A stretch of 29,761 nucleotides of DNA from a virus, in the IMG/VR virus record IMGVR_UViG_3300045988_081399; one strand, given 5' to 3'. Shown here piece by piece: positions 1 through 29,761 of the stretch. The notes under the pieces were generated by a model. The model did no database searches, was not told the origin of the DNA, and worked only from the letters and a program-made list of their open reading frames with translations. A program made the translations under genes and the position numbers. Within the stretch, counting starts at the first letter, position 1. The number at the start of each line of letters is the position of its first letter.

Positions 1-148
1 CAAGGACAGAGTCGCTGCCCAGAAGAAGGCATGGTACGAGGCGAACAAGGACAAGCTCGCCGCCTGGCAGAAGGCATACCGCGAGGCGAACAAGGACAAG
101 ATTGCCGCCTGGCAGAAGGCATACCGCGAGGCGAACAAGGACAAGATT
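1..148. repeat. 45-bp tandem repeat array, 3' block (tail of R4/R5 overlap, R5 to nt 58, R6 59-103, R7 104-148)
   Basis: R6 and R7 are identical over all 45 nt (gccgcctggcagaaggcataccgcgaggcgaacaaggacaagatt). R5 is a hybrid of the upstream and downstream repeat types. A degenerate eighth unit follows at 149-193. Confidence 0.9.
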
Positions 149-328
149 GCCGCCCAGCAGAAAAGCATTGCGCTGGCGCGCAAAGCCCAGGGTATGACCC
201 AGAGTGGGCTTGCGGCTATAGTCAGAGTGACCCAGGCGACTGTATCGCTATGGGAGACCGGCGCGGTCAAAGCAAACTGGGACAAGCTCTGCGCAGCGCT
301 GCCGGAGCTGGAGACGCACAGACCGTAA
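1..328 (+). CDS. 3' part of the junction-spanning regulator gene (continues from 29401..29761): last 15-aa tandem repeats plus a C-terminal XRE-type helix-turn-helix
   Basis: Frame 2 (codons from nt 2) is open from the window edge to TAA 326-328. It reads KDRVAAQKKAWYEANKDKL, AAWQKAYREANKDKI x2, then ...GMTQSGLAAIVRVTQATVSLWETG, a typical HTH_3/XRE motif. The phase matches the ORF that runs off the 3' end. Tracked ORF 31..384 is the wrong frame of the same repeats. Confidence 0.8.
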   Translation, partial: KDRVAAQKKAWYEANKDKLAAWQKAYREANKDKIAAWQKAYREANKDKIAAQQKSIALARKAQGMTQSGLAAIVRVTQATVSLWETGAVKANWDKLCAALPELETHRP

Positions 329-1523: not shown

Positions 1524-2456
1524 ATGGCAAGAAATACCCCGATGGTGCAGCAGAAGAAGTTCAGCACCATGATCTCCACACCCAGCTATCAAGCGATGAT
1601 CGCCAACACCCTGCGAGACCCCAACCGGCAGAGACGCTTTGTGGCGGCGATCACGTCCGCCGTGGCGGCCACGCCTGCGCTCCAGAGCTGCAATCCCAGC
1701 AGCATTTTGGCTGGGGCACTGCTGGGAGAAGGGCTGAACCTCAGTCCGTCGCCTCAGCTGGGACAGTTCTACCTGGTGCCCTTCAAATGCAAGGCCAAGG
1801 ACGCCAGGGGGAACCAGCTCAAGGATCAGAACGGGGAAGACCTGTATGAGAACAAAGCACAGTTCGTCCTTGGATACAAGGGCTATGTCCAGATGGCGCT
1901 GAAGAGTAAGCAGTATGTGGACATGGACGCAGTGGTCGTGAAGGAAGGGGAGTACCTGGGACGAGACCCCAGCACCGGGAAGCCAATGTTCACGTTCCTC
2001 TCGGATGACGAGGAATGGCAGCAGCGCCCCACGGCCGGTTACATGGCCTATCTGGAGTATGACGGCGGCTTCCGCAAGACCGTCTACTGGTCAAAGGAGA
2101 AGATGATGGCGCACGCCGACCGGTTCAGCCCGGCGTTCTCTGCCCAGGCGCTGAAGCGGCTGGAGGCTGGCGAGATTCCCGACCGTGACTTGTGGCGATA
2201 CTCCTCCTTCTGGTACAAGGATTTCGACGGGATGGCCTGCAAGACCATGCTGCGGCAGCTGATCTCCAAGTGGGGCATCCTCTCCACGGAGATGCAGGCT
2301 GCGATCACCCAGGATGGGCAGTTTGCCGACTGCGACTTGAAGAAACAGGACGTCGTAGTGCATGACGTGGACGTCGTGTCGGATGCGCCGGAGGAAGCGA
2401 TGGACGAGCTGGACCCCATCGTAGAGGATGGGGAGATCACCCTGGATGACCTGTAA
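1524..2456 (+). CDS. recT: RecT-family single-strand annealing recombinase
   Basis: AAGGAGG at 1510-1516 precedes ATG 1524. The 310-aa product carries RecT-like blocks (SILAGALLGEGLNLSPSPQLGQFYLVPF, GYKGYVQMALKS, KTMLRQLISKWG). Confidence 0.85.
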   Translation: MARNTPMVQQKKFSTMISTPSYQAMIANTLRDPNRQRRFVAAITSAVAATPALQSCNPSSILAGALLGEGLNLSPSPQLGQFYLVPFKCKAKDARGNQLKDQNGEDLYENKAQFVLGYKGYVQMALKSKQYVDMDAVVVKEGEYLGRDPSTGKPMFTFLSDDEEWQQRPTAGYMAYLEYDGGFRKTVYWSKEKMMAHADRFSPAFSAQALKRLEAGEIPDRDLWRYSSFWYKDFDGMACKTMLRQLISKWGILSTEMQAAITQDGQFADCDLKKQDVVVHDVDVVSDAPEEAMDELDPIVEDGEITLDDL

Positions 2457-3148
2457 TGCAGTGCGAGATATTGGCCACTGGCTCCGCCGGGAACGCGGTG
2501 GTGCTGGGCGGGACGATCCTGATAGACTGCGGTGTGCCGTACAAACTGCTGGCACCCTATGTCCCTGACCTGCAGCTGGTGCTGCTGACCCACATCCACA
2601 GCGACCACTTCCGACGAGCTACCATCCGGCGCCTGGCCGCGGAGCGCCCCCGGTTACGCTGGGGGTGCGGGCCGTGGCTGGTGCAGCCCTTGGGTGAGCT
2701 GGGCGTGTCGCGACGGCAGATCGACGCGCTGAAGGACGGCCACACTTACCAATACGGCAGCAAGGTGGTGGTGTCGCCGGTGCTGCTGGTGCACGATGTG
2801 CCCAATCAGGGGTACAAGCTGCGTATAGGCTGGGAGCGGTGCATTTACTGCACGGACACGGCCAACCTGCACGGGGTGTCGGCCCCAAATTATGACCTGT
2901 ACCTGATTGAGGCGAACTATGACGAAGCGGAGATTGCCCAGAGGATCGCAGACCGCAAGGCGGCGGGAGAATACGCCTACGAACGCCGGGTGACACGGAG
3001 TCACCTGAGCGTCCAACAATGTGATGATTTTATCTATTCCAACATCGGTGCGCGTGGGCAGTACGTCTATATGCACCAGCATGAGGAGAAGGAAGAAAAT
3101 GAACGTGAAATACATGAACGAACTCCCTGCGGGCTTAAAAGAACGTAG
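2456..3148 (+). CDS. MBL-fold metallo-hydrolase (probable nuclease partner of RecT)
   Basis: Start overlaps the recT stop (TAATG). HxHxDH motif is present (LLTHIHSDHF), with N-terminal ILATGSAGNAVVL typical of the metallo-beta-lactamase fold. Confidence 0.8.
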   Translation: MQCEILATGSAGNAVVLGGTILIDCGVPYKLLAPYVPDLQLVLLTHIHSDHFRRATIRRLAAERPRLRWGCGPWLVQPLGELGVSRRQIDALKDGHTYQYGSKVVVSPVLLVHDVPNQGYKLRIGWERCIYCTDTANLHGVSAPNYDLYLIEANYDEAEIAQRIADRKAAGEYAYERRVTRSHLSVQQCDDFIYSNIGARGQYVYMHQHEEKEENEREIHERTPCGLKRT

Positions 3149-3362
3149 GGAGACCAAGACCAGCAAGCTGCTGGCAGTGATGCAGGATTTTATGGCGAGG
3201 CCTGAGCCCATCATGGAGGTGGCGTGGGAGGAAACCTACAGCAGCGTAACTTCCGCAGCTGCCTCCGCACGCAGCGCGATCCGGTCGAATAAACTTGCGC
3301 TGCGCGTGACCCGCTGCCAGAACCGGCTGTTCATCCAGAAGGAGGCCGCCGATGCTGAATAA
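3099..3362 (+). CDS. Hypothetical protein (87 aa)
   Basis: ATG 3099 is preceded by GGAGAAGGAAG. The tracked ORF 3021..3362 probably over-extends the N-terminus. It overlaps the MBL gene end by 50 nt and the ssb start by 11 nt. Confidence 0.5.
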   Translation: MNVKYMNELPAGLKERRETKTSKLLAVMQDFMARPEPIMEVAWEETYSSVTSAAASARSAIRSNKLALRVTRCQNRLFIQKEAADAE

Positions 3363-3789
3363 GGTATTCCTCCAGGGTCGCCTTGTAGCAGACCCAGAAC
3401 TGCGCAAGACCCAGCAGGGGACGCCGGTGGCGTCCTATCGCTTGGCTGTGGATCGGGGTTACAAGAGCAAGGACTCCAACGCCCAAAACACGGACTTCGT
3501 CAACATCGTGTCCTGGCGCAACACGGCGGAGTTCGTCTGCAAATACTTCACCAAAGGCCGCATGATGCTGGTGGAAGGCCGCCTGCAGATGCGTGACTAC
3601 ACGGACAAGGACGGCAACAAGCGAGTGGCCGCGGAGGTCGTGACGGATAACGTCTACTTCTGCGATTCACGCAAGGATGAGAGCGGGACAAGCTCCGGCG
3701 GCGGTTACGGACCGCCCAGCGGCTCCGGGGTGCCCGGTGACGGCGGCTTCGCAGAGCTGAGCGACAATGACGGCGAACTGCCGTTCTAA
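3352..3789 (+). CDS. ssb: Single-stranded DNA-binding protein
   Basis: OB-fold N-terminus (MLNKVFLQGRLVADPELR...VNIVSWRNTAEF...GRLQMRDYTDKDGNKR), a Gly-rich linker and an acidic C-terminal tip DNDGELPF. Confidence 0.9.
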   Translation: MLNKVFLQGRLVADPELRKTQQGTPVASYRLAVDRGYKSKDSNAQNTDFVNIVSWRNTAEFVCKYFTKGRMMLVEGRLQMRDYTDKDGNKRVAAEVVTDNVYFCDSRKDESGTSSGGGYGPPSGSGVPGDGGFAELSDNDGELPF

Positions 3790-3800
3790 GGAGTGAGAGT

Positions 3801-4799
3801 ATGGCGTGGATTGAATTACATCAGAATCTTCCGGCGCACAGAAAAGTGAAAAAGTTGAAGCGGCTGCTGAAGATCAAGACGCCGCAGGCAGTTGGGCATC
3901 TGGCCATGCTGTGGCTCTGGGCAGTGGACAATGCGCCGGATGGTGATCTATCCGCGCTGGATCCAGAGGACATTGCAGAAGCGTGTGAGTGGCCGAAGGA
4001 CGCGGAACAATTCGTGCAGGCGCTGACCGAGGCCGGTTTTATCGACCCGGACGCAAAACTGCACGATTGGAGCGATTACGCCGGGATGCTCCTGGACCGC
4101 CGGGAGAACCAACGAGAGCAGAACCGCAAGCGGCAACAGCGTTACCGTAACAAACGGAAAGCGGACAGTAACGCGACCGAGTCCAATGCGCCAACGCAAG
4201 ATTCTAGCCCCGTAACGCATGACGATAACGTTAGCGTAACGCGTTACGAAAGCGTTAGTAACGCCCCTGTAACGACCCTACCTAACCTAACCATACCTAA
4301 CCATACCAAACCTAACCTTAACCAGGGGAGGTATGAGGATACTTGTAAGGCGTTACCAGGCACCGACAGCGTTACGGCGCCAGCACCCTGTCCGCCGCAG
4401 AAACGGTCAGAAGCAGTGGCCTATTACTGCCAGCATATCAACCCCACACCGTCTGGGTACTCACTGCAGGCGCTGGAACGCTTTGAGGGCATCTTGGGGG
4501 CAGAGGTGACCATCCATGCCATCCAGATTGCTCAGGACGAGCGCAAGCAGAGCTGGAATTACATCAAGGCCATCCTGGAGCGCTATGAGCGTGAGGGAGT
4601 CCGGTCTCTGGCGGACATCCAGGCATCAGAGCAGCAGCGCCAGGCGGCAAGACAGCAGCAGGGCTGGAAGAAGCCTGCAAAAGCGCCCGTGCCGGAAGCG
4701 GACAGACAGCCGGAAGACCAGGCGGAGTTTGCAGCTAGAATCGCGGAACAGGACGCCTGGATGCGAGGCTTCTTGGAGAGCCAACGGGAGGAGGGATGA
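3801..4799 (+). CDS. Replication initiator / replisome organizer with C-terminal DnaD-like domain
   Basis: The C-terminal block YYCQHINPTPSGYSLQALERFEGILGAEVTIHAIQIAQDERKQSWNYIKAILERYEREGVRSLADI looks like a DnaD/DnaB_2 domain. The N-terminal WIELHQN...LAMLWLWAVDNAPDG is typical of phage initiator N-domains. A low-complexity linker is encoded by the iteron cluster. Confidence 0.7.
   Translation: MAWIELHQNLPAHRKVKKLKRLLKIKTPQAVGHLAMLWLWAVDNAPDGDLSALDPEDIAEACEWPKDAEQFVQALTEAGFIDPDAKLHDWSDYAGMLLDRRENQREQNRKRQQRYRNKRKADSNATESNAPTQDSSPVTHDDNVSVTRYESVSNAPVTTLPNLTIPNHTKPNLNQGRYEDTCKALPGTDSVTAPAPCPPQKRSEAVAYYCQHINPTPSGYSLQALERFEGILGAEVTIHAIQIAQDERKQSWNYIKAILERYEREGVRSLADIQASEQQRQAARQQQGWKKPAKAPVPEADRQPEDQAEFAARIAEQDAWMRGFLESQREEG
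4140..4376. repeat. Iteron cluster inside the initiator gene (candidate origin of replication)
   Basis: GTAACG at 4168, 4212, 4236, 4258 and 4269 (plus CGTAAC 4146). Its complement CGTTAC at 4140, 4242, 4350 and 4369. CCTAACC at 4281, 4286, 4296 and 4311. Confidence 0.6.
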
Positions 4800-25233: not shown

Positions 25234-25671
25234 ATGAAAGAAATGATTTGTACGGGTGCGGGGCTGGTTGGTGCCGCCATCTCTGGTTTCATCGGCGGCC
25301 TGGATCTGGCGCTAAAGGCGCTTTGCATCTTCATGGCCATCGACTACATTTCCGGCTTAATCTGCGCCGGGGTGTTCCATCGCAGTCCTAAGACAGTCAA
25401 CGGGGCGCTGGAATCCAAAGCCTGCTGGAAGGGGCTGGTGCGCAAGTGTATGGCGTTGCTGATGGTGCTGGTGGCGCATCTGCTCGACCTGCTGTTGGGC
25501 ACTGCCTTCGTCAAGGACGGCGTCTGCACGGCGTTCATTGTCAGTGAGGTCATCTCCATCACGGAGAACGCTGGCCTCATGGGCGTGCCCATGCCTGCGG
25601 TGATGCAGAATGCGATCGAAATGCTCCAGAAGAAAGGAGATAACCATGGCGGCAACAGTGACGAAGATTGA
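25234..25671 (+). CDS. Holin (Phage_holin_4_1 / TcdE-like family)
   Basis: AAAGGAGA RBS precedes ATG 25234. LALKALCIFMAIDYISGLI ... SEVISITENAGLMGVPMP is the family signature. Several TM segments. Confidence 0.85.
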   Translation: MKEMICTGAGLVGAAISGFIGGLDLALKALCIFMAIDYISGLICAGVFHRSPKTVNGALESKACWKGLVRKCMALLMVLVAHLLDLLLGTAFVKDGVCTAFIVSEVISITENAGLMGVPMPAVMQNAIEMLQKKGDNHGGNSDED

Positions 25672-27040
25672 TTACCTGGCCAAGGCGGCAGAGGCAGCGG
25701 ACAAGCTCTATCCGAAGATTGTGTCCCTGCGCTGCACTCACGCCAGCGGTGCGAAGACCTACGCCCAGCTGCTGAGCGCCAAGAAGGTCACCTGCGCTTC
25801 CTCCGCCTCCATCGCCTATCAGCTGGCTGGAATCCTGGCCAGCGGCGATGTGGTCGGCCATCGGGACGCCGTGGGCGGCTCGGACGCCAACATCCTGCGC
25901 AAAAAGTCCACCGTGGCCAAGGCGATGACCGGCGTGGCCAATCTGCCTAAGGACAAGGTGGACGTGGTGTGGGTAGGGAAGAAGTACGCTGACCTGCCCG
26001 CGAAGTACCGGCAGAAGGGCGTCCTCTGCGTCCAGGACAGCAACGTCTGCATTTGCGCTGGCGGCGGTGCGATCTACAGCTGCAACGGCGCAAAGGGCAG
26101 TCAGCTGGACAGCAAGGGGCGTTACAAGGCCAACAAGATCACCAGTGGCTATGCGTTCAATTCGCCCATCCTGGTGGTGGTCGTGCCCAAAATAAAGGAG
26201 GTTCCCACAGTGACAAAACTGCATTTTATGGACGTCAGCCAGTTCAACCCGACCGTCGATTGGGCGAAGGCAACTAAGGATGTGGATGGCGTCGTCATCC
26301 GTGCCGGTTACCGCGGAACGGGCGGCGGCCTGAAGACTGACCCCATGTTCTTGAAGCACATCCAGGGCGCCATCAGCGCCGGGGTCAAGCGGATCGGCGT
26401 CTACTGGTGGACGGCGCACACCTCTGTCGCTCAGGCGGAAGGGGATGCGGCCTATCTGACGAGCTTGCTGAAGCCCTACAAGGCGCACATCAACTTCCGG
26501 GTCTGGCTGGACAGTGAACCGTCCGCCAACCCCAGCGCCTTCAACCGCCTGTCCGCTGCGGCACGGACGACCTGCGCCAAAGCGTTCCTGGCGGCTACGG
26601 CGGCGGCAGGGCATGCTGTGGGCATCTACTCCAGCGACAGCTATTTCATCAGTGGCCTGCAGTTGTCCAAGCTGTCTAGCTACCCGCTGTGGGTGGCCAA
26701 ATGGTCGGCAATCCCGCCCAAGCAGGTTAAGAACTACGTTGGCTGGCAGTACACCGACAAGGGCAAGGTGACCGGCGTGACCGGTAAGGTAGACCGGTCC
26801 TATTTCTATGAGGACTTCGCGAATAATAAGTCGATTGAGGAGGTACATGATATGGACACGCTGAGAAAAGGTGACAAGGGACAGCAGGTGCGTGCGCTGC
26901 AGAAGCTGCTGGGTGGTATCGCTGTGGATGGTGTCTTCGGCAATGCCACCAAAGCGGCGGTGGAGGCGTACCAGCGGCAGTATCAGCTGAGCGTGGATGG
27001 TGTCGTGGGGGCGAAGACTTGGGACGCGCTGCTAAAATGA
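25646..27040 (+). CDS. Three-domain endolysin: N-terminal putative Cys peptidase/amidase, central GH25 muramidase, C-terminal PG_binding_1
   Basis: AAAGGAGA RBS precedes ATG 25646, which overlaps the holin end by 26 nt. GH25 blocks: FMDVSQFNPTVDW, GVVIRAGY, VWLDSE, GIYSS, LWVAKWS, GWQYTDKGKVTGVTGKVDRSYF. C-terminal LRKGDKGQQVRALQKLL...DGVFGNATKAAVEAYQ...VDGVVGAKTWDALL is PG_binding_1. The N-terminal VTCASSASIAYQLAG resembles Amidase_5-type Cys hydrolases (low confidence). Confidence 0.9.
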   Translation: MAATVTKIDYLAKAAEAADKLYPKIVSLRCTHASGAKTYAQLLSAKKVTCASSASIAYQLAGILASGDVVGHRDAVGGSDANILRKKSTVAKAMTGVANLPKDKVDVVWVGKKYADLPAKYRQKGVLCVQDSNVCICAGGGAIYSCNGAKGSQLDSKGRYKANKITSGYAFNSPILVVVVPKIKEVPTVTKLHFMDVSQFNPTVDWAKATKDVDGVVIRAGYRGTGGGLKTDPMFLKHIQGAISAGVKRIGVYWWTAHTSVAQAEGDAAYLTSLLKPYKAHINFRVWLDSEPSANPSAFNRLSAAARTTCAKAFLAATAAAGHAVGIYSSDSYFISGLQLSKLSSYPLWVAKWSAIPPKQVKNYVGWQYTDKGKVTGVTGKVDRSYFYEDFANNKSIEEVHDMDTLRKGDKGQQVRALQKLLGGIAVDGVFGNATKAAVEAYQRQYQLSVDGVVGAKTWDALLK

Positions 27041-27058
27041 TGTGATAGACAGCAAAAA

Positions 27059-27099
27059 GCCTGGGGCGGTTCAAACTGCCCCAGGCCTTTTGTTTTTTT
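27059..27099 (+). terminator. Rho-independent terminator ending the late/lysis operon
   Basis: GCCTGGGGC (27059-27067), 10-nt loop, GCCCCAGGC (27078-27086), then CTTTTGTTTTTTT. Confidence 0.85.
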
Positions 27100-27179
27100 C
27101 AGAAGAGGAAGAATTGTAAAACATAAGCAAAGTCCGCATTTTGGAACTAAATGTCTATTATAACCGTTCGAGGTTTGAT

Positions 27180-27203
27180 TTGTCAATAGACCCTGGTTGA
27201 CAA
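27180..27203. promoter_or_regulatory. Inverted repeat TTGTCAA-N10-TTGACAA overlapping the -35 box (candidate operator)
   Basis: TTGTCAA at 27180-27186 and its exact reverse complement TTGACAA at 27197-27203. Confidence 0.5.
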
Positions 27204-27225
27204 CCGCGGCTCCGACATGTATAAT
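27197..27225 (+). promoter_or_regulatory. Consensus sigma-A/sigma-70 promoter (probable early promoter)
   Basis: TTGACA 27197-27202, exactly 17-nt spacer, TATAAT 27220-27225. Located between the late-operon terminator and the first early ORF. Confidence 0.7.
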
Positions 27226-27316
27226 CAAAAATAAGAGTAAACTTTGTTAAAGTTTTGATGATATTTTAGCAAAGTTTCGGGAGTAGGACATAAAGTTTAA
27301 TGAAAGGGGGGTATAT

Positions 27317-27946
27317 ATGGACATGTTGACACGCGAATATATCAACGAGTTGGCTGAACTGATTATCGAAATATACGACATCCGAGTTCCAATAAAGAAT
27401 ATCGATGAAATCGTAGAAAAATTAGGCGGATGCGTTGATAATGAAAAAGAAAGTCTATATGATGGGACGATTGAAAAAGTAGACCAAGATAGTTTTTGCA
27501 TTAAAGTATCCCCCTACCAAAGCGAGCGAAGGAAAAATTTTACGGTAGCGCATGAGCTGGGACATCTGTTTTTGCACATGGGTTACAAGACAAATCCACA
27601 GATTTGGGAAAGTCATGAGTCTGGGAAAAAATATCAGAGGTCTGGGACAACGGAACAGGAATATCAGGCAAATGAGTTTGCGGCATCTCTGTTGATGCCT
27701 AAAAAAAAATTCATAGCAGAGTTAATGAGGATTGCAGCTGACGTCCTGGCTGAAATCAAAGCGCTGGACCCGGACACGCGGATCACCCTGCATTACATCC
27801 GGAGCATCATCAACCAGGGCAAGGTGCCTGTCCGCAAGGCTGGCACCAAGAAGCTGGTCGATTTGGACAAGGTGCTGGAGTACCTGGCTCGCGGAGACGA
27901 AGATGAAAAGACACCAACCGGAGAAATCCGGAGAGTGGAGCTGTGA
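27317..27946 (+). CDS. Chimeric ORF: AT-rich ImmA/IrrE-type (M78) metallopeptidase N-terminal part fused in frame to a GC-rich excisionase/HTH_17-like C-terminal part
   Basis: FTVAHELGHLFLH (HExxH) and EQEYQANEFAASLLMP are ImmA/IrrE signatures. After an A9 run (27701-27709) the composition switches to GC-rich at about 27722. The rest (ITLHYIRSIINQGKVPVRKAGTKKLVDLDKVLEYL) resembles Xis/HTH_17 proteins. An in-frame ATG at 27725 could start a separate 73-aa product. Confidence 0.7.
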   Translation: MDMLTREYINELAELIIEIYDIRVPIKNIDEIVEKLGGCVDNEKESLYDGTIEKVDQDSFCIKVSPYQSERRKNFTVAHELGHLFLHMGYKTNPQIWESHESGKKYQRSGTTEQEYQANEFAASLLMPKKKFIAELMRIAADVLAEIKALDPDTRITLHYIRSIINQGKVPVRKAGTKKLVDLDKVLEYLARGDEDEKTPTGEIRRVEL

Positions 27947-28128
27947 AAGCGGCTTATGTCAGCACCTGCCCCAAATGCGAAAAATGCCGCCTATACATCC
28001 AGCGCCGCTGCAAGGGTCTGCTGGACTACCAGCGGCGGTGGTGCCCGGAGTGGATTACATCCGGGATGGTGGCGGACGCTTGGGGTCGGCGGGTGCAGAC
28101 AAGACAACTGAGGCAACGAGACAGATGA
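27943..28128 (+). CDS. Small Cys-rich hypothetical protein (61 aa)
   Basis: GTG 27943 overlaps the upstream stop (GTGA). Contains CPKCEKC...C...WCPEW. Confidence 0.45.
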   Translation: MKAAYVSTCPKCEKCRLYIQRRCKGLLDYQRRWCPEWITSGMVADAWGRRVQTRQLRQRDR

Positions 28129-28140
28129 GGAGGAAACGAA

Positions 28141-28566
28141 ATGACCATCAACGAAGCAGTAGAGCAACTGAAAGAACTGAGAAGCGCGTCGTGGAACAAC
28201 CGGGATGAATCGAGCGGAGACAGCACCAACGACGAGTATGCAACGGCGTTGGCGGACAGCGTTGCGCTGGACGTAGCGCTCAACGCCCTCACCGGGCACA
28301 CACCGGAGCCCAGTGCTGACGTGTCTCCTGCCCTGGCCAACGAGGCGCGCGCAGAACGGCTGTGGGACGATGACCGGCGTCTGTTTGTGCGCAACCTGGG
28401 TTGGCTGCTGAGCCAGACTCGGTGCGGCGTGGTGTCCTGTGAGCTGTACGGAGACCAGGACCGCGAGTATGTGATCGCGCTGTACGACCACGGCGGCAAG
28501 CGGGAGATCGACGTCACTGCGGACAGCTATTTGGCGATCATCAAGGACGTGACCAATCGGGTATAA
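28141..28566 (+). CDS. Hypothetical protein (141 aa, acidic)
   Basis: GAGGAGGAAA RBS precedes ATG 28141. No motif recognised. Confidence 0.6.
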   Translation: MTINEAVEQLKELRSASWNNRDESSGDSTNDEYATALADSVALDVALNALTGHTPEPSADVSPALANEARAERLWDDDRRLFVRNLGWLLSQTRCGVVSCELYGDQDREYVIALYDHGGKREIDVTADSYLAIIKDVTNRV

Positions 28567-28578
28567 GGAGGGATAACA

Positions 28579-28884
28579 TTGGACTACACGAAAACAGTTT
28601 TAAGGCTCCGTGACGCGGGGCAGGAAGAAGAGGCGCGCAAAGTTCTGGCCGAAGGTGTTATGTATTATTCGCGCAAGGCGGAAGGCCTGTTTAATGGGAC
28701 GCCGTATTGCGACATCCCTATTTTGGTTATGGCGGCAGAGCGGATTTGCGGGTTCTTACGCAACACGGATGGCTTTATCAATGGGCAGGCAAATGTGTTT
28801 GATGAAAGCCTTGGCGAGTATGTATCCAAATCCATCATCGCAATGACAATCGCCGGAGGGGAGGAAGAACGATGCTGGGAGTAA
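28579..28884 (+). CDS. Hypothetical protein (101 aa)
   Basis: AAGGAGGG RBS precedes TTG 28579. No motif recognised. Confidence 0.5.
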   Translation: MDYTKTVLRLRDAGQEEEARKVLAEGVMYYSRKAEGLFNGTPYCDIPILVMAAERICGFLRNTDGFINGQANVFDESLGEYVSKSIIAMTIAGGEEERCWE

Positions 28885-29400: not shown

Positions 29401-29761
29401 ATGATCGAGTGCAACCACAACTGCCTGGAGTGCCCATATCCTGACGTGCCGGAGGAGTGCCTGGAGGCGGCTCTGACATGGGATGAGTACAAAGAGCTCG
29501 ACGTCATCGACAAGGACATTATCAACCCAAAGACGGCAAAACAAAAAGCAGTCGCCGCCTGGCAGAAGGCGTGGTACGAGGCGAACAAGGACAGAGTCGC
29601 TGCCCGGCAGAAGGCATGGTACGAGGCGAACAAGGACAGAGTCGCTGCCCGGCAGAAGGCGTGGTACGAGGCGAACAAGGACAGAGTCGCTGCCCAGAAG
29701 AAGGCATGGTACGAGGCGAACAAGGACAGAGTCGCTGCCCAGAAGAAGGCATGGTACGAGG
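29401..29761 (+). CDS. 5' part of the junction-spanning regulator gene: zinc-ribbon-like N-terminus followed by 15-aa tandem repeats (continues at nt 41 of the window)
   Basis: AGGAGG 29387-29392 lies 8 nt before ATG 29401. The ORF has no stop before the window end and so is absent from the ORF track. It reads MIECNHNCLECPYPDVPEEC...KQKAV, then AAWQKAWYEANKDRV-type repeats. Confidence 0.8.
   Translation, partial: MIECNHNCLECPYPDVPEECLEAALTWDEYKELDVIDKDIINPKTAKQKAVAAWQKAWYEANKDRVAARQKAWYEANKDRVAARQKAWYEANKDRVAAQKKAWYEANKDRVAAQKKAWYE
29554..29761. repeat. 45-bp tandem repeat array, 5' block (R1 29554-29598, R2 29599-29643, R3 29644-29688, R4 29689-29733, R5 from 29734)
   Basis: The period of 45 nt was confirmed by position (ggcagaaggc at 29561 and 29606). 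R2 and R3 differ at one nt. The 41-mer caaggacagagtcgctgcccagaagaaggcatggtacgagg occurs at 29676-29716, 29721-29761 and 1-41. Confidence 0.9.

Follow-up and report, generated by a model that had tools for sequence, protein, structure and literature searches.

The viral record IMGVR_UViG_3300045988_081399 of IMG/VR, a stretch of 29,761 nucleotides (nt) analysed here over its whole length and referred to below as the window, encodes at 27317..27946 on the plus strand an open reading frame (ORF) of 209 amino acids (aa) in which the front of an ImmA-like peptidase gene runs in frame into a small early gene. An earlier note, made from the DNA letters alone, had described this ORF together with its HELGH motif, a run of nine adenines (A9) and a break in guanine-plus-cytosine (GC) content, and had proposed three explanations: a real protease-helix-turn-helix (HTH) fusion, a slippage-controlled switch, or a scar left by foreign DNA inserted in front of a native gene. 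The four features are all borne out on re-reading the window, the GC fraction being 0.376 in 27096-27725 vs 0.571 elsewhere in the window.

Judging by its sequence, the N-terminal part belongs, in truncated form, to the ImmA/IrrE/CapP group of M78 peptidases. Pfam, the closest homologue, an alignment with CapP and a structure model all identify 27317..27724 (plus strand) as codons 1-136 of a 173-codon gene for an ImmA/CapP-like M78 metallopeptidase. The Pfam family Peptidase_M78 (PF06114) matches aa 58-137 (E=5.7e-15, 55.6 bits for a cutoff of 22), the domain being incomplete and covering only profile positions 27-97 of 123. Both HELGH (aa 79-83) and EYQANEFAASLLMP (aa 115-128), pointed out before, are present in the translation, and the zinc motif is kept, H79, E80 and H83 together with the downstream glutamate E115 aligning with H96, E97, H100 and E129 of CapP. 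The closest homologue, P0001, is intact (173 aa) and 98% identical over aa 1-136, after which it continues into its own C-terminus, RKHTDKNGRIDISAVARHFNVSFSAAVNRGRFLRYIK. The loss from the C-terminus, put at ~45 aa in the earlier note, actually amounts to 37 residues (137-173 of P0001), and the 37 lost codons correspond to an HTH-like linker. In the AlphaFold2 model of the 209-aa protein, the catalytic domain as delimited for CapP is complete, with its five helices and three strands, and a single continuous helix (residues 129-150) spans the joint with a predicted local distance difference test score (pLDDT) of ~80-89. The best PADLOC model for this part is CapP (E=4.8e-25), and in structure the model is most similar to CapP (7T5T), PprI (8SLN) and IrrE (3DTE). 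In species-representative genomes no close copy of this ImmA was found, the best match being a protein of Gemmiger formicilis with 56% identity.

CapP is composed of a peptidase whose catalytic domain has five helices and three strands, an HTH-like linker and, at the C-terminus, a GAF domain, and often contains a cysteine-switch loop (bioRxiv 10.1101/2022.04.27.489752). What the parent of the fusion shares with the ImmA/IrrE(PprI)/CapP family is the PF06114 match, the HEXXH motif with its glutamate ligand and the structural matches. Unlike CapP, the parent protein has only 173 aa, aligns only with CapP residues 87-178, and lacks both the GAF domain and the cysteine-switch loop. CapP is further accompanied by a divergent HTH partner, CapH, whereas the 276-bp gap between endolysin and ImmA genes contains no plausible ORF here, nor does it in the related contig L001. 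In the window the HTH-like linker of the family is replaced by an unrelated winged helix. Members of the family have a repressor as partner; those of the parent gene are instead a 528-aa protein of no known family (p528) and a 2TM effector. The earlier note was correct that no XRE partner is adjacent in the window, where none lies beside the ORF or nearby, and the only protein left there that could be considered as an XRE substrate of ImmA is an unrelated 178-aa HTH_3 protein. In L053, a relative of the ancestral type, an XRE repressor is encoded ~2.6 kb past the cassette on the opposite strand; this repressor of ancestor-type relatives is lost, along with the integrase, in the deletion described below.

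The position of the joint follows from two sets of relatives. The AT-rich stretch is 94.6-99.7% identical to contigs L001-L008 and L053 as far as 27725-27728, and eight contigs with an intact ImmA gene, 95-99.7% identical to the window, follow it through holin and endolysin genes as far as these positions, then diverge. This left homology stops at 27725, or at 27728 if one mismatch is allowed; right homology, to contig L011, begins at 27724, and from there on L011 is 99.9% identical to the window. As the left homology ends at 27725, the right one starts at 27724 and AA occurs in both parents, we place the recombination joint at 27724/27725 (27724..27725, plus strand), with a 2-nt AA microhomology common to both parents.

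That the two parts meet at the A9 tract was therefore not borne out. Parental sequences and the comparison of assemblies indicate that the tract (27701..27709, plus strand), which encodes KKK (aa 129-131), is native to the intact peptidase gene and is found inside the 173-aa homologue P0001; the joint lies 16 nt downstream, and L001 agrees with the window both in A9 and in the 16 bases after it, TTCATAGCAGAGTTAA. It remains true that the length of the tract decides the frame, A8 giving a product of 132 aa ending in ...PKKNS and A10 one of 141 aa. A switch in which changes in A9 length would toggle between the 209-aa fusion and short, peptidase-only products could find some encouragement in these two truncations and in the closeness of a nine-base homopolymer to the joint. 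Yet exactly nine adenines are found in all 13 assemblies examined, of which eight carry the intact gene and five the fusion; the sister allele (L053/L056), ~95% identical, reads AAAAGCAAA in place of A9 and encodes KSK, and more distant homologues have no KKK at this position. In the intact 173-aa gene a frameshift at A9 would simply wreck the gene, and neither frameshift product acquires a recognisable domain. We accordingly give a slippage switch next to no credence.

Downstream of the joint, comparison with L011, homologue clusters and the AlphaFold2 fold identify 27725..27946 (plus strand) as codons 6-78 and the stop codon of a 78-aa early gene. An ATG does stand in frame at 27725, as had been observed, but the 73 codons that it opens are not a complete gene: the native protein has MGIPR in front of MRIAADV..., and in the window its ribosome-binding site (RBS) and first five codons are gone. 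In L011 the native gene has 78 codons (MGIPRMRIAADVL...) with a GAGGAGG RBS eight bases before the ATG, and the MGIPR start recurs in nearly all of 17 homologue clusters. The likeness to excisionases of the Xis/HTH_17 type suggested for this part was borne out only in that the predicted fold looks Xis-like, and not at the level of Pfam HTH_17, to which there is no match. The C-terminal part has no Pfam match at E<=0.1 and no PHROG match, and 0 of the 17 homologue clusters carries a Pfam domain. AlphaFold2 predicts for the 73-aa part (mean pLDDT 80) an alpha1-alpha2-beta-beta-alpha3 topology, whose top match in the PDB is Xis of mycobacteriophage Pukovnik (4J2N; 54 columns, root-mean-square deviation 2.0 A, target-normalised TM-score 0.63, with a weak Foldseek E=0.59), followed by a chain of 7LWR (a viral DNA-packaging-motor entry), RacA and BldC. 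"Xis/MerR-like winged helix" is a reasonable label for the modelled fold, short of an established family membership. The predicted winged-helix topology is what the protein shares with Xis; it differs in that its gene sits in the early operon and not beside the integrase in relatives, and in its distribution, being found in phages with a tyrosine integrase as well as in L052, which goes back to a type with a serine integrase, and missing from some relatives. In L015, L017, L018 and L022 it is swapped for unrelated genes. The next early gene (27943..28128, plus strand; 61 aa, Cys-rich) has a GTG start that overlaps the TGA stop of the fusion (GTGA), an arrangement also found in L011, and the overlap makes translational coupling of this gene to the fusion frame probable.

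Between the points that flank the joint, temperate relatives have 5-8 kb of DNA, comprising the rest of the cassette to which ImmA belongs, the phage attachment site (attP), the integrase, the repressor and cro. In L053-L055 (31.1 kb, n=3) the order is endolysin, ImmA, p528, PycTM, then a serine recombinase, a 127-aa gene and an XRE repressor, these three on the minus strand, then a cro-like gene on the plus strand and the early genes. In L021 (35.5 kb), 7.6 kb separate the endolysin terminator from the 78-aa gene, vs 628 bp in the window, and contain other cargo together with a tyrosine integrase, a CI repressor of the S24 type and a cro-like gene. L043 represents an integrated form, with polA and tsaD as host flanks. 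Most of the examined relatives that span the interval carry an integrase and a repressor there, the exceptions being L020 and L052. Searches of the window by tblastn with the relatives' integrases, repressors, cro-like proteins, p528 and effector returned nothing.

With respect to the attachment sites, L048, L049 and L056 all diverge from L053 at 12740, just past PycTM, and L053:12640-12760 is the likely attP in relatives with a serine integrase. The right flank of L001 was considered as a simple attR and rejected, L001 running ~90 bp beyond the attP point of these three contigs. A core common to this flank and to the attL/attP regions of L043/L021 was also sought, with chance-level matches only.

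The modules of the window are otherwise complete according to Pfam, covering replication, packaging, head, tail and lysis. Encoded are RecT, SSB, a DnaD-like initiator, RusA, MazG, terminase, an SPP1-type portal, MuF and scaffold proteins, as well as a P22-type coat protein, tail tube, tape measure, holin and a GH25 endolysin. A tandem repeat array with a 45-bp (15-codon) unit is split by the ends of the window (1-162 and 29550-29761). Three relatives (L016, L017 and L022) join the end of the window to its start straight through this repeat, from which it follows that the window is a closed genome of ~29.8 kb broken within the repeat. The contig is just as long as the window. It is, in short, a closed ~29.8-kb siphovirus genome without a lysogeny module.

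Among the three explanations offered previously, the insertion scar came closest, insofar as the AT-rich block is indeed phage cargo; its right edge, however, is a deletion endpoint, and the native gene behind it is truncated at its 5' end. Taken literally, this explanation would have ~630 bp of foreign AT-rich DNA land ahead of a native gene, the phage having never held a lysogeny module at this place. Such a history would fit a block bounded exactly by the endolysin terminator and an early gene, with its own promoter, in the manner of a moron. It would leave unaccounted for an ImmA gene deprived of 37 codons and of two conserved, translationally coupled partners, and a 78-aa gene deprived of its RBS and five codons; moreover, L020 and L052, the exceptions to the rule that spanning relatives hold an integrase and repressor there, look like deletion forms. 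We regard it as very unlikely.

The same joint, with A9, is present in four other contigs (L009, L010, L012 and L013) from other assemblies and samples, L009 and L012 being ENA records that name SAMN06164445 and SAMN06164444, respectively, L010 coming from ERZ1026936 and L013 from SRR6028197. The flanks of L009 differ from those of the window on both sides of the fusion. The fusion ORF itself is 100% nucleotide-identical across the copies and its ImmA part is one base off the intact gene; the event is thus recent, and no selection can be read from these sequences. It is worth asking whether the assembler merely joined two phages of a metagenome at a short shared word. The sharp change in composition at the joint, an overlap of just 2 nt and the fact that the joint is known from consensus assemblies might suggest so, but an overlap of 2 nt is much too small to lead an assembler astray, the window and all four other contigs show the joint in independent assemblies, and a second deletion nested in the first carries the same ImmA allele. 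An assembly chimera therefore strikes us as extremely improbable. Exact-pattern scans of IMG/VR and JGI metagenome contigs for the joints of both fusions (209 aa and the 148 aa described next) gave no match, and a scan of these contigs for the ImmA allele recovered one contig, in which the cassette is intact. GenBank phage records, searched for near and distant relatives, contained no match to the locus or to the AT-rich block.

The product of the nested deletion, P0139, is a protein of 148 aa found at L047:3122-3568 and in contigs of up to 28.8 kb. It consists of ImmA residues 1-119 in frame with the last 29 residues of the window's 101-aa gene (27317-27674 + 28795-28884), and it descends from the window type, since it carries the window-specific base G27416. 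The deletion, of ~1.1 kb, occurred between near-identical 16-mers and removes the winged-helix gene, two others that encode 61 and 141 aa, and the greater part of the 101-aa gene. In the window, the two copies of the 16-nt repeat, CAGGCAAATG[A/T]GTTTG, used by this deletion in relatives are found on the plus strand at 27665..27680 (left copy) and at 28786..28801 (right copy, inside the 101-aa gene, 28579-28884). In an independent event, L052 has lost 5,077 bp relative to L053 (L052:10519-10700 vs L053:10627-15702), the deletion beginning near codon 36 of p528 and ending in the cro promoter, between its -35 and -10 elements. Missing from L052 are p528 and PycTM, the serine integrase along with the 127-aa gene and XRE repressor, and also the -35 of cro; its ImmA gene is intact and the ImmA promoter faces cro. 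Lastly, L020 (IMG/VR, 32.4 kb; 2363-4132) has kept its CI repressor and has lost the integrase, most of a 243-aa gene and part of cro. Together, the nested deletion of L047 and those of L052 and L020 indicate that deletions in this region are recurrent.

We therefore consider it very likely that the 209-aa ORF is the scar of a deletion by illegitimate recombination in a formerly temperate siphovirus of the human gut, and neither a designed fusion nor a slippage switch. Everything from ImmA codon 137 through codon 5 of the 78-aa winged-helix early gene is missing from the window, the ends being joined at the AA microhomology and, by chance, in frame, which creates the 209-codon chimera. As the deletion spans attP, it would have arisen in excised or replicating phage DNA, and in the absence of integrase and repressor the product is probably an obligately lytic derivative. 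The native promoter of the early genes would have been lost as well, transcription now coming most likely from the cassette promoter at 27197-27225, and the winged-helix domain and the overlapping 61-aa gene would be accessible only to ribosomes initiating at 27317. The chimeric protein is probably made, presumably as a by-product with no selected function of its own.

Several points weigh against this reading. The joint and the length of A9 rest on consensus assemblies. No single contig was found with the intact cassette, the 78-aa gene and a lysogeny module between them; L052, already a deletion form without lysogeny module, is the only one with both an intact ImmA and the 78-aa gene. For want of one ancestral contig, the direct ancestor is reconstructed from relatives of the L053 type and of the L021/L011/L052 type. 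We infer the lytic lifestyle and the use of the cassette promoter; consensus promoter scans of L011 and L021 identified no native early promoter, and its loss is for this reason deduced from position. Lastly, both fusions (209 and 148 aa) are in frame and the catalytic domain of the 209-aa protein is complete, and some selection on read-through or on the protein may have been at work.

An established precedent is provided by the dairy phages of Streptococcus thermophilus, among which virulent and temperate ones are close relatives, according to PMC3952083, which cites Brussow & Bruttin 1995 and Lucchini 1999. The window has in common with virulent (clear-plaque) deletion derivatives of temperate phages a complete, collinear genome from which integrase and repressor are precisely gone, as well as truncated genes and microhomology at the joint and several independent deletions in one region. 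It differs in that a defence-like cassette and cro are also lost and that a cargo promoter is left as the only strong consensus promoter found before the early operon; also, the phages considered here are known from metagenomic sequence and not as isolates. Spontaneous deletions of the lysogeny module of phage Sfi21 were reportedly described by Bruttin and Brussow in 1996. The locus adds a new example to a type of event already known, in which a temperate phage gives rise, by microhomology-mediated deletion, to a derivative without lysogeny.

Could the ORF nonetheless encode a new protein with a function, in which an ImmA-type protease is linked to a DNA-binding winged helix and which selection retains, for instance for site-specific repressor cleavage or as an anti-repressor? 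The fusion is in frame, H79, E80, H83 and E115 and the whole catalytic fold are kept, the modelled helix runs uninterrupted across the joint, what was lost is, in CapP and IrrE, an HTH-like linker itself, and the joint persists in five assemblies with differing flanks. However, with copies 100% identical and one base from an intact ImmA, there has been no time for selection to act or show. The derived lineage represented by P0139 has lost the last catalytic helix, the winged helix and two more genes and was yet assembled as contigs of ~28.8 kb, which argues that the protein is dispensable. A family of real protease-HTH fusions, as formerly envisaged, found no support either: none of the 120 listed of 535 homologues has this architecture, five longer or high-coverage ones read in sequence have no winged-helix tail, and the only related fusion is the second deletion product. 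To this can be added the replacement of the 78-aa gene by unrelated genes in four relatives and the absence from the genome of any XRE substrate other than the unrelated HTH_3 protein. A selected fusion protein is, on balance, unlikely.

A different role for selection concerns the promoter and not the protein. The deletion might be an adaptive rewiring that places the early operon under a constitutive, repressor-independent cargo promoter, the in-frame joint feeding ribosomes to the coupled early genes, and so yields an immunity-insensitive, obligately lytic phage. We entertain this only tentatively, as a possibility with rather less than even chances; in a weaker variant, the 209-aa chimera would have an activity of its own. 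Were the rewiring true, it would, together with L052, where the ImmA promoter is kept and the -35 of cro lost, represent a recurrent natural route from temperate to virulent phages in the gut.

Upstream of the ORF, the endolysin gene (25610-27040) is closed by a bidirectional intrinsic terminator (27053..27092) with a 12-bp stem of which nine pairs are GC, 19-nt arms and a T run, the hairpin forming also on minus-strand RNA. This terminator is the last backbone sequence ahead of the cargo, homology to L021 ending at 27095. From 27096 to 27724 (27096..27724, plus strand; GC 0.38) extends the AT-rich remnant of the cargo cassette, recognised by its identity to relatives with the full cassette. 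A consensus scan located therein a putative sigma-70-type promoter at 27197..27225 (plus strand; TTGACA-17-TATAAT, 12/12), no other strong consensus promoter having been found upstream of fusion ORF and early genes, and a divergent, equally perfect consensus promoter at 27157..27186 (minus strand; TTGACA-18-TATAAT). Between the plus-strand promoter and the ORF, the 5' untranslated region of the ImmA fragment contains a 15-bp inverted repeat, or hairpin (27239..27277, plus strand; AAACTTTGTTAAA...TTTAGCAAAGTTT), that may be an operator or an RNA hairpin, with CAAAGT motifs like those of the repeat also at 27128 and 27294. The RBS of the start codon at 27317 reads AAGGGGGG (27304..27311, plus strand).

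The minus-strand promoter lies back to back with that of ImmA, and an RNA of ~100 nt predicted from it (region 27045-27186) would end at the bidirectional terminator. Its predicted fold has a free energy of -31.9 kcal/mol (z = -3.3). The region has no ORF and no Rfam match, and the RNA may be a small RNA of the cassette. Rfam gave no meaningful match over 26900-28200 as a whole.

Phage morons, in the sense of Hendrix and colleagues, are cargo genes with their own promoter and terminator behind the lysis genes. The AT-rich block resembles them in composition, in its position directly after the endolysin terminator, in its own consensus promoter and in the presence of other cargo at the same place in relatives (SocA/Panacea genes in L021). 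Here, though, only a stump is left, and its promoter now points at the phage's own early genes.

In sister contigs the 173-aa peptidase gene is the first of three overlapping genes after the endolysin and is followed by the genes for p528 and for a 180-aa PycTM/2TM effector (PF18967; PADLOC 2TM effector E=9.2e-32, PycTM E=7.8e-25). The cassette is located at L001:2141-4793 and L053:10001-12647, and is also found in L023-L030. The triad is conserved at 34-56% identity in genomes of Gemmiger, Angelakisella, Roseburia and Lachnospiraceae; more widely, the cassette is seen in many Clostridia (Gemmiger, Roseburia, Anaerobutyricum hallii, Oribacterium), with a peptidase of ~173 aa and a middle protein of 490-540 aa, translationally coupled. 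Clusters of p528 number >500 and every source name shown for them is "hypothetical protein". The protein has the invariant motifs LFFSFD[IV]VNS and WR[VI]xGDE; no identity was obtained from Pfam, PADLOC, NCBIfam or the PDB (sequence and profile searches), the only signal being a weak Nudix-like one at the C-terminus, and no cyclase model matched. The FSFD[IV]VNS and GDE motifs presumably recall the palm of class III cyclases.

The parent cassette shares its CapP-like start and its PycTM/2TM effector end with Pycsar/CBASS-type 2TM-effector operons (bioRxiv 10.1101/2022.04.27.489752; 10.64898/2026.05.16.725639). In contrast to these, it contains no recognised cyclase or CD-NTase and no CapH or other XRE partner, and all that the window retains of it are peptidase codons 1-136. 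From its gene content, we propose the ImmA-p528-2TM cassette as a candidate anti-phage system with an unusual regulator arrangement.

For annotation, the 209-aa ORF is to be seen as a junction artefact of genome reduction rather than as a new protease-HTH family or a phase-variable gene. The finding is in itself ordinary; what deserves attention is the recurrence of deletions after which a cargo promoter faces early genes, as well as the uncharacterised cassette. The intact temperate form, the 5-kb deletion of L052, the deletion of the window and the nested 1.1-kb deletion of L047 make up a natural series, which documents how temperate phages of the gut lose lysogeny and defence cargo via microhomology-mediated deletion and supplies concrete genomes for asking about virulence and immunity escape.

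Two observations were made elsewhere in the window. An early protein with an MBL fold (2456-3148) has as its sole sequence match in the PDB the anti-Pycsar nuclease Apyc1 (7U2R; weak, E=0.0067), and its relatives bear a faint mark of the Apyc1 Pfam family, which deserves mention because phages of the ancestor type carry the PycTM cassette. In the DnaD/DnaB_2-like replication gene (3801-4799), tandem repeats at 4211-4324 (24 bp x2 and 15 bp x3.3) resemble the iterons of replication origins.

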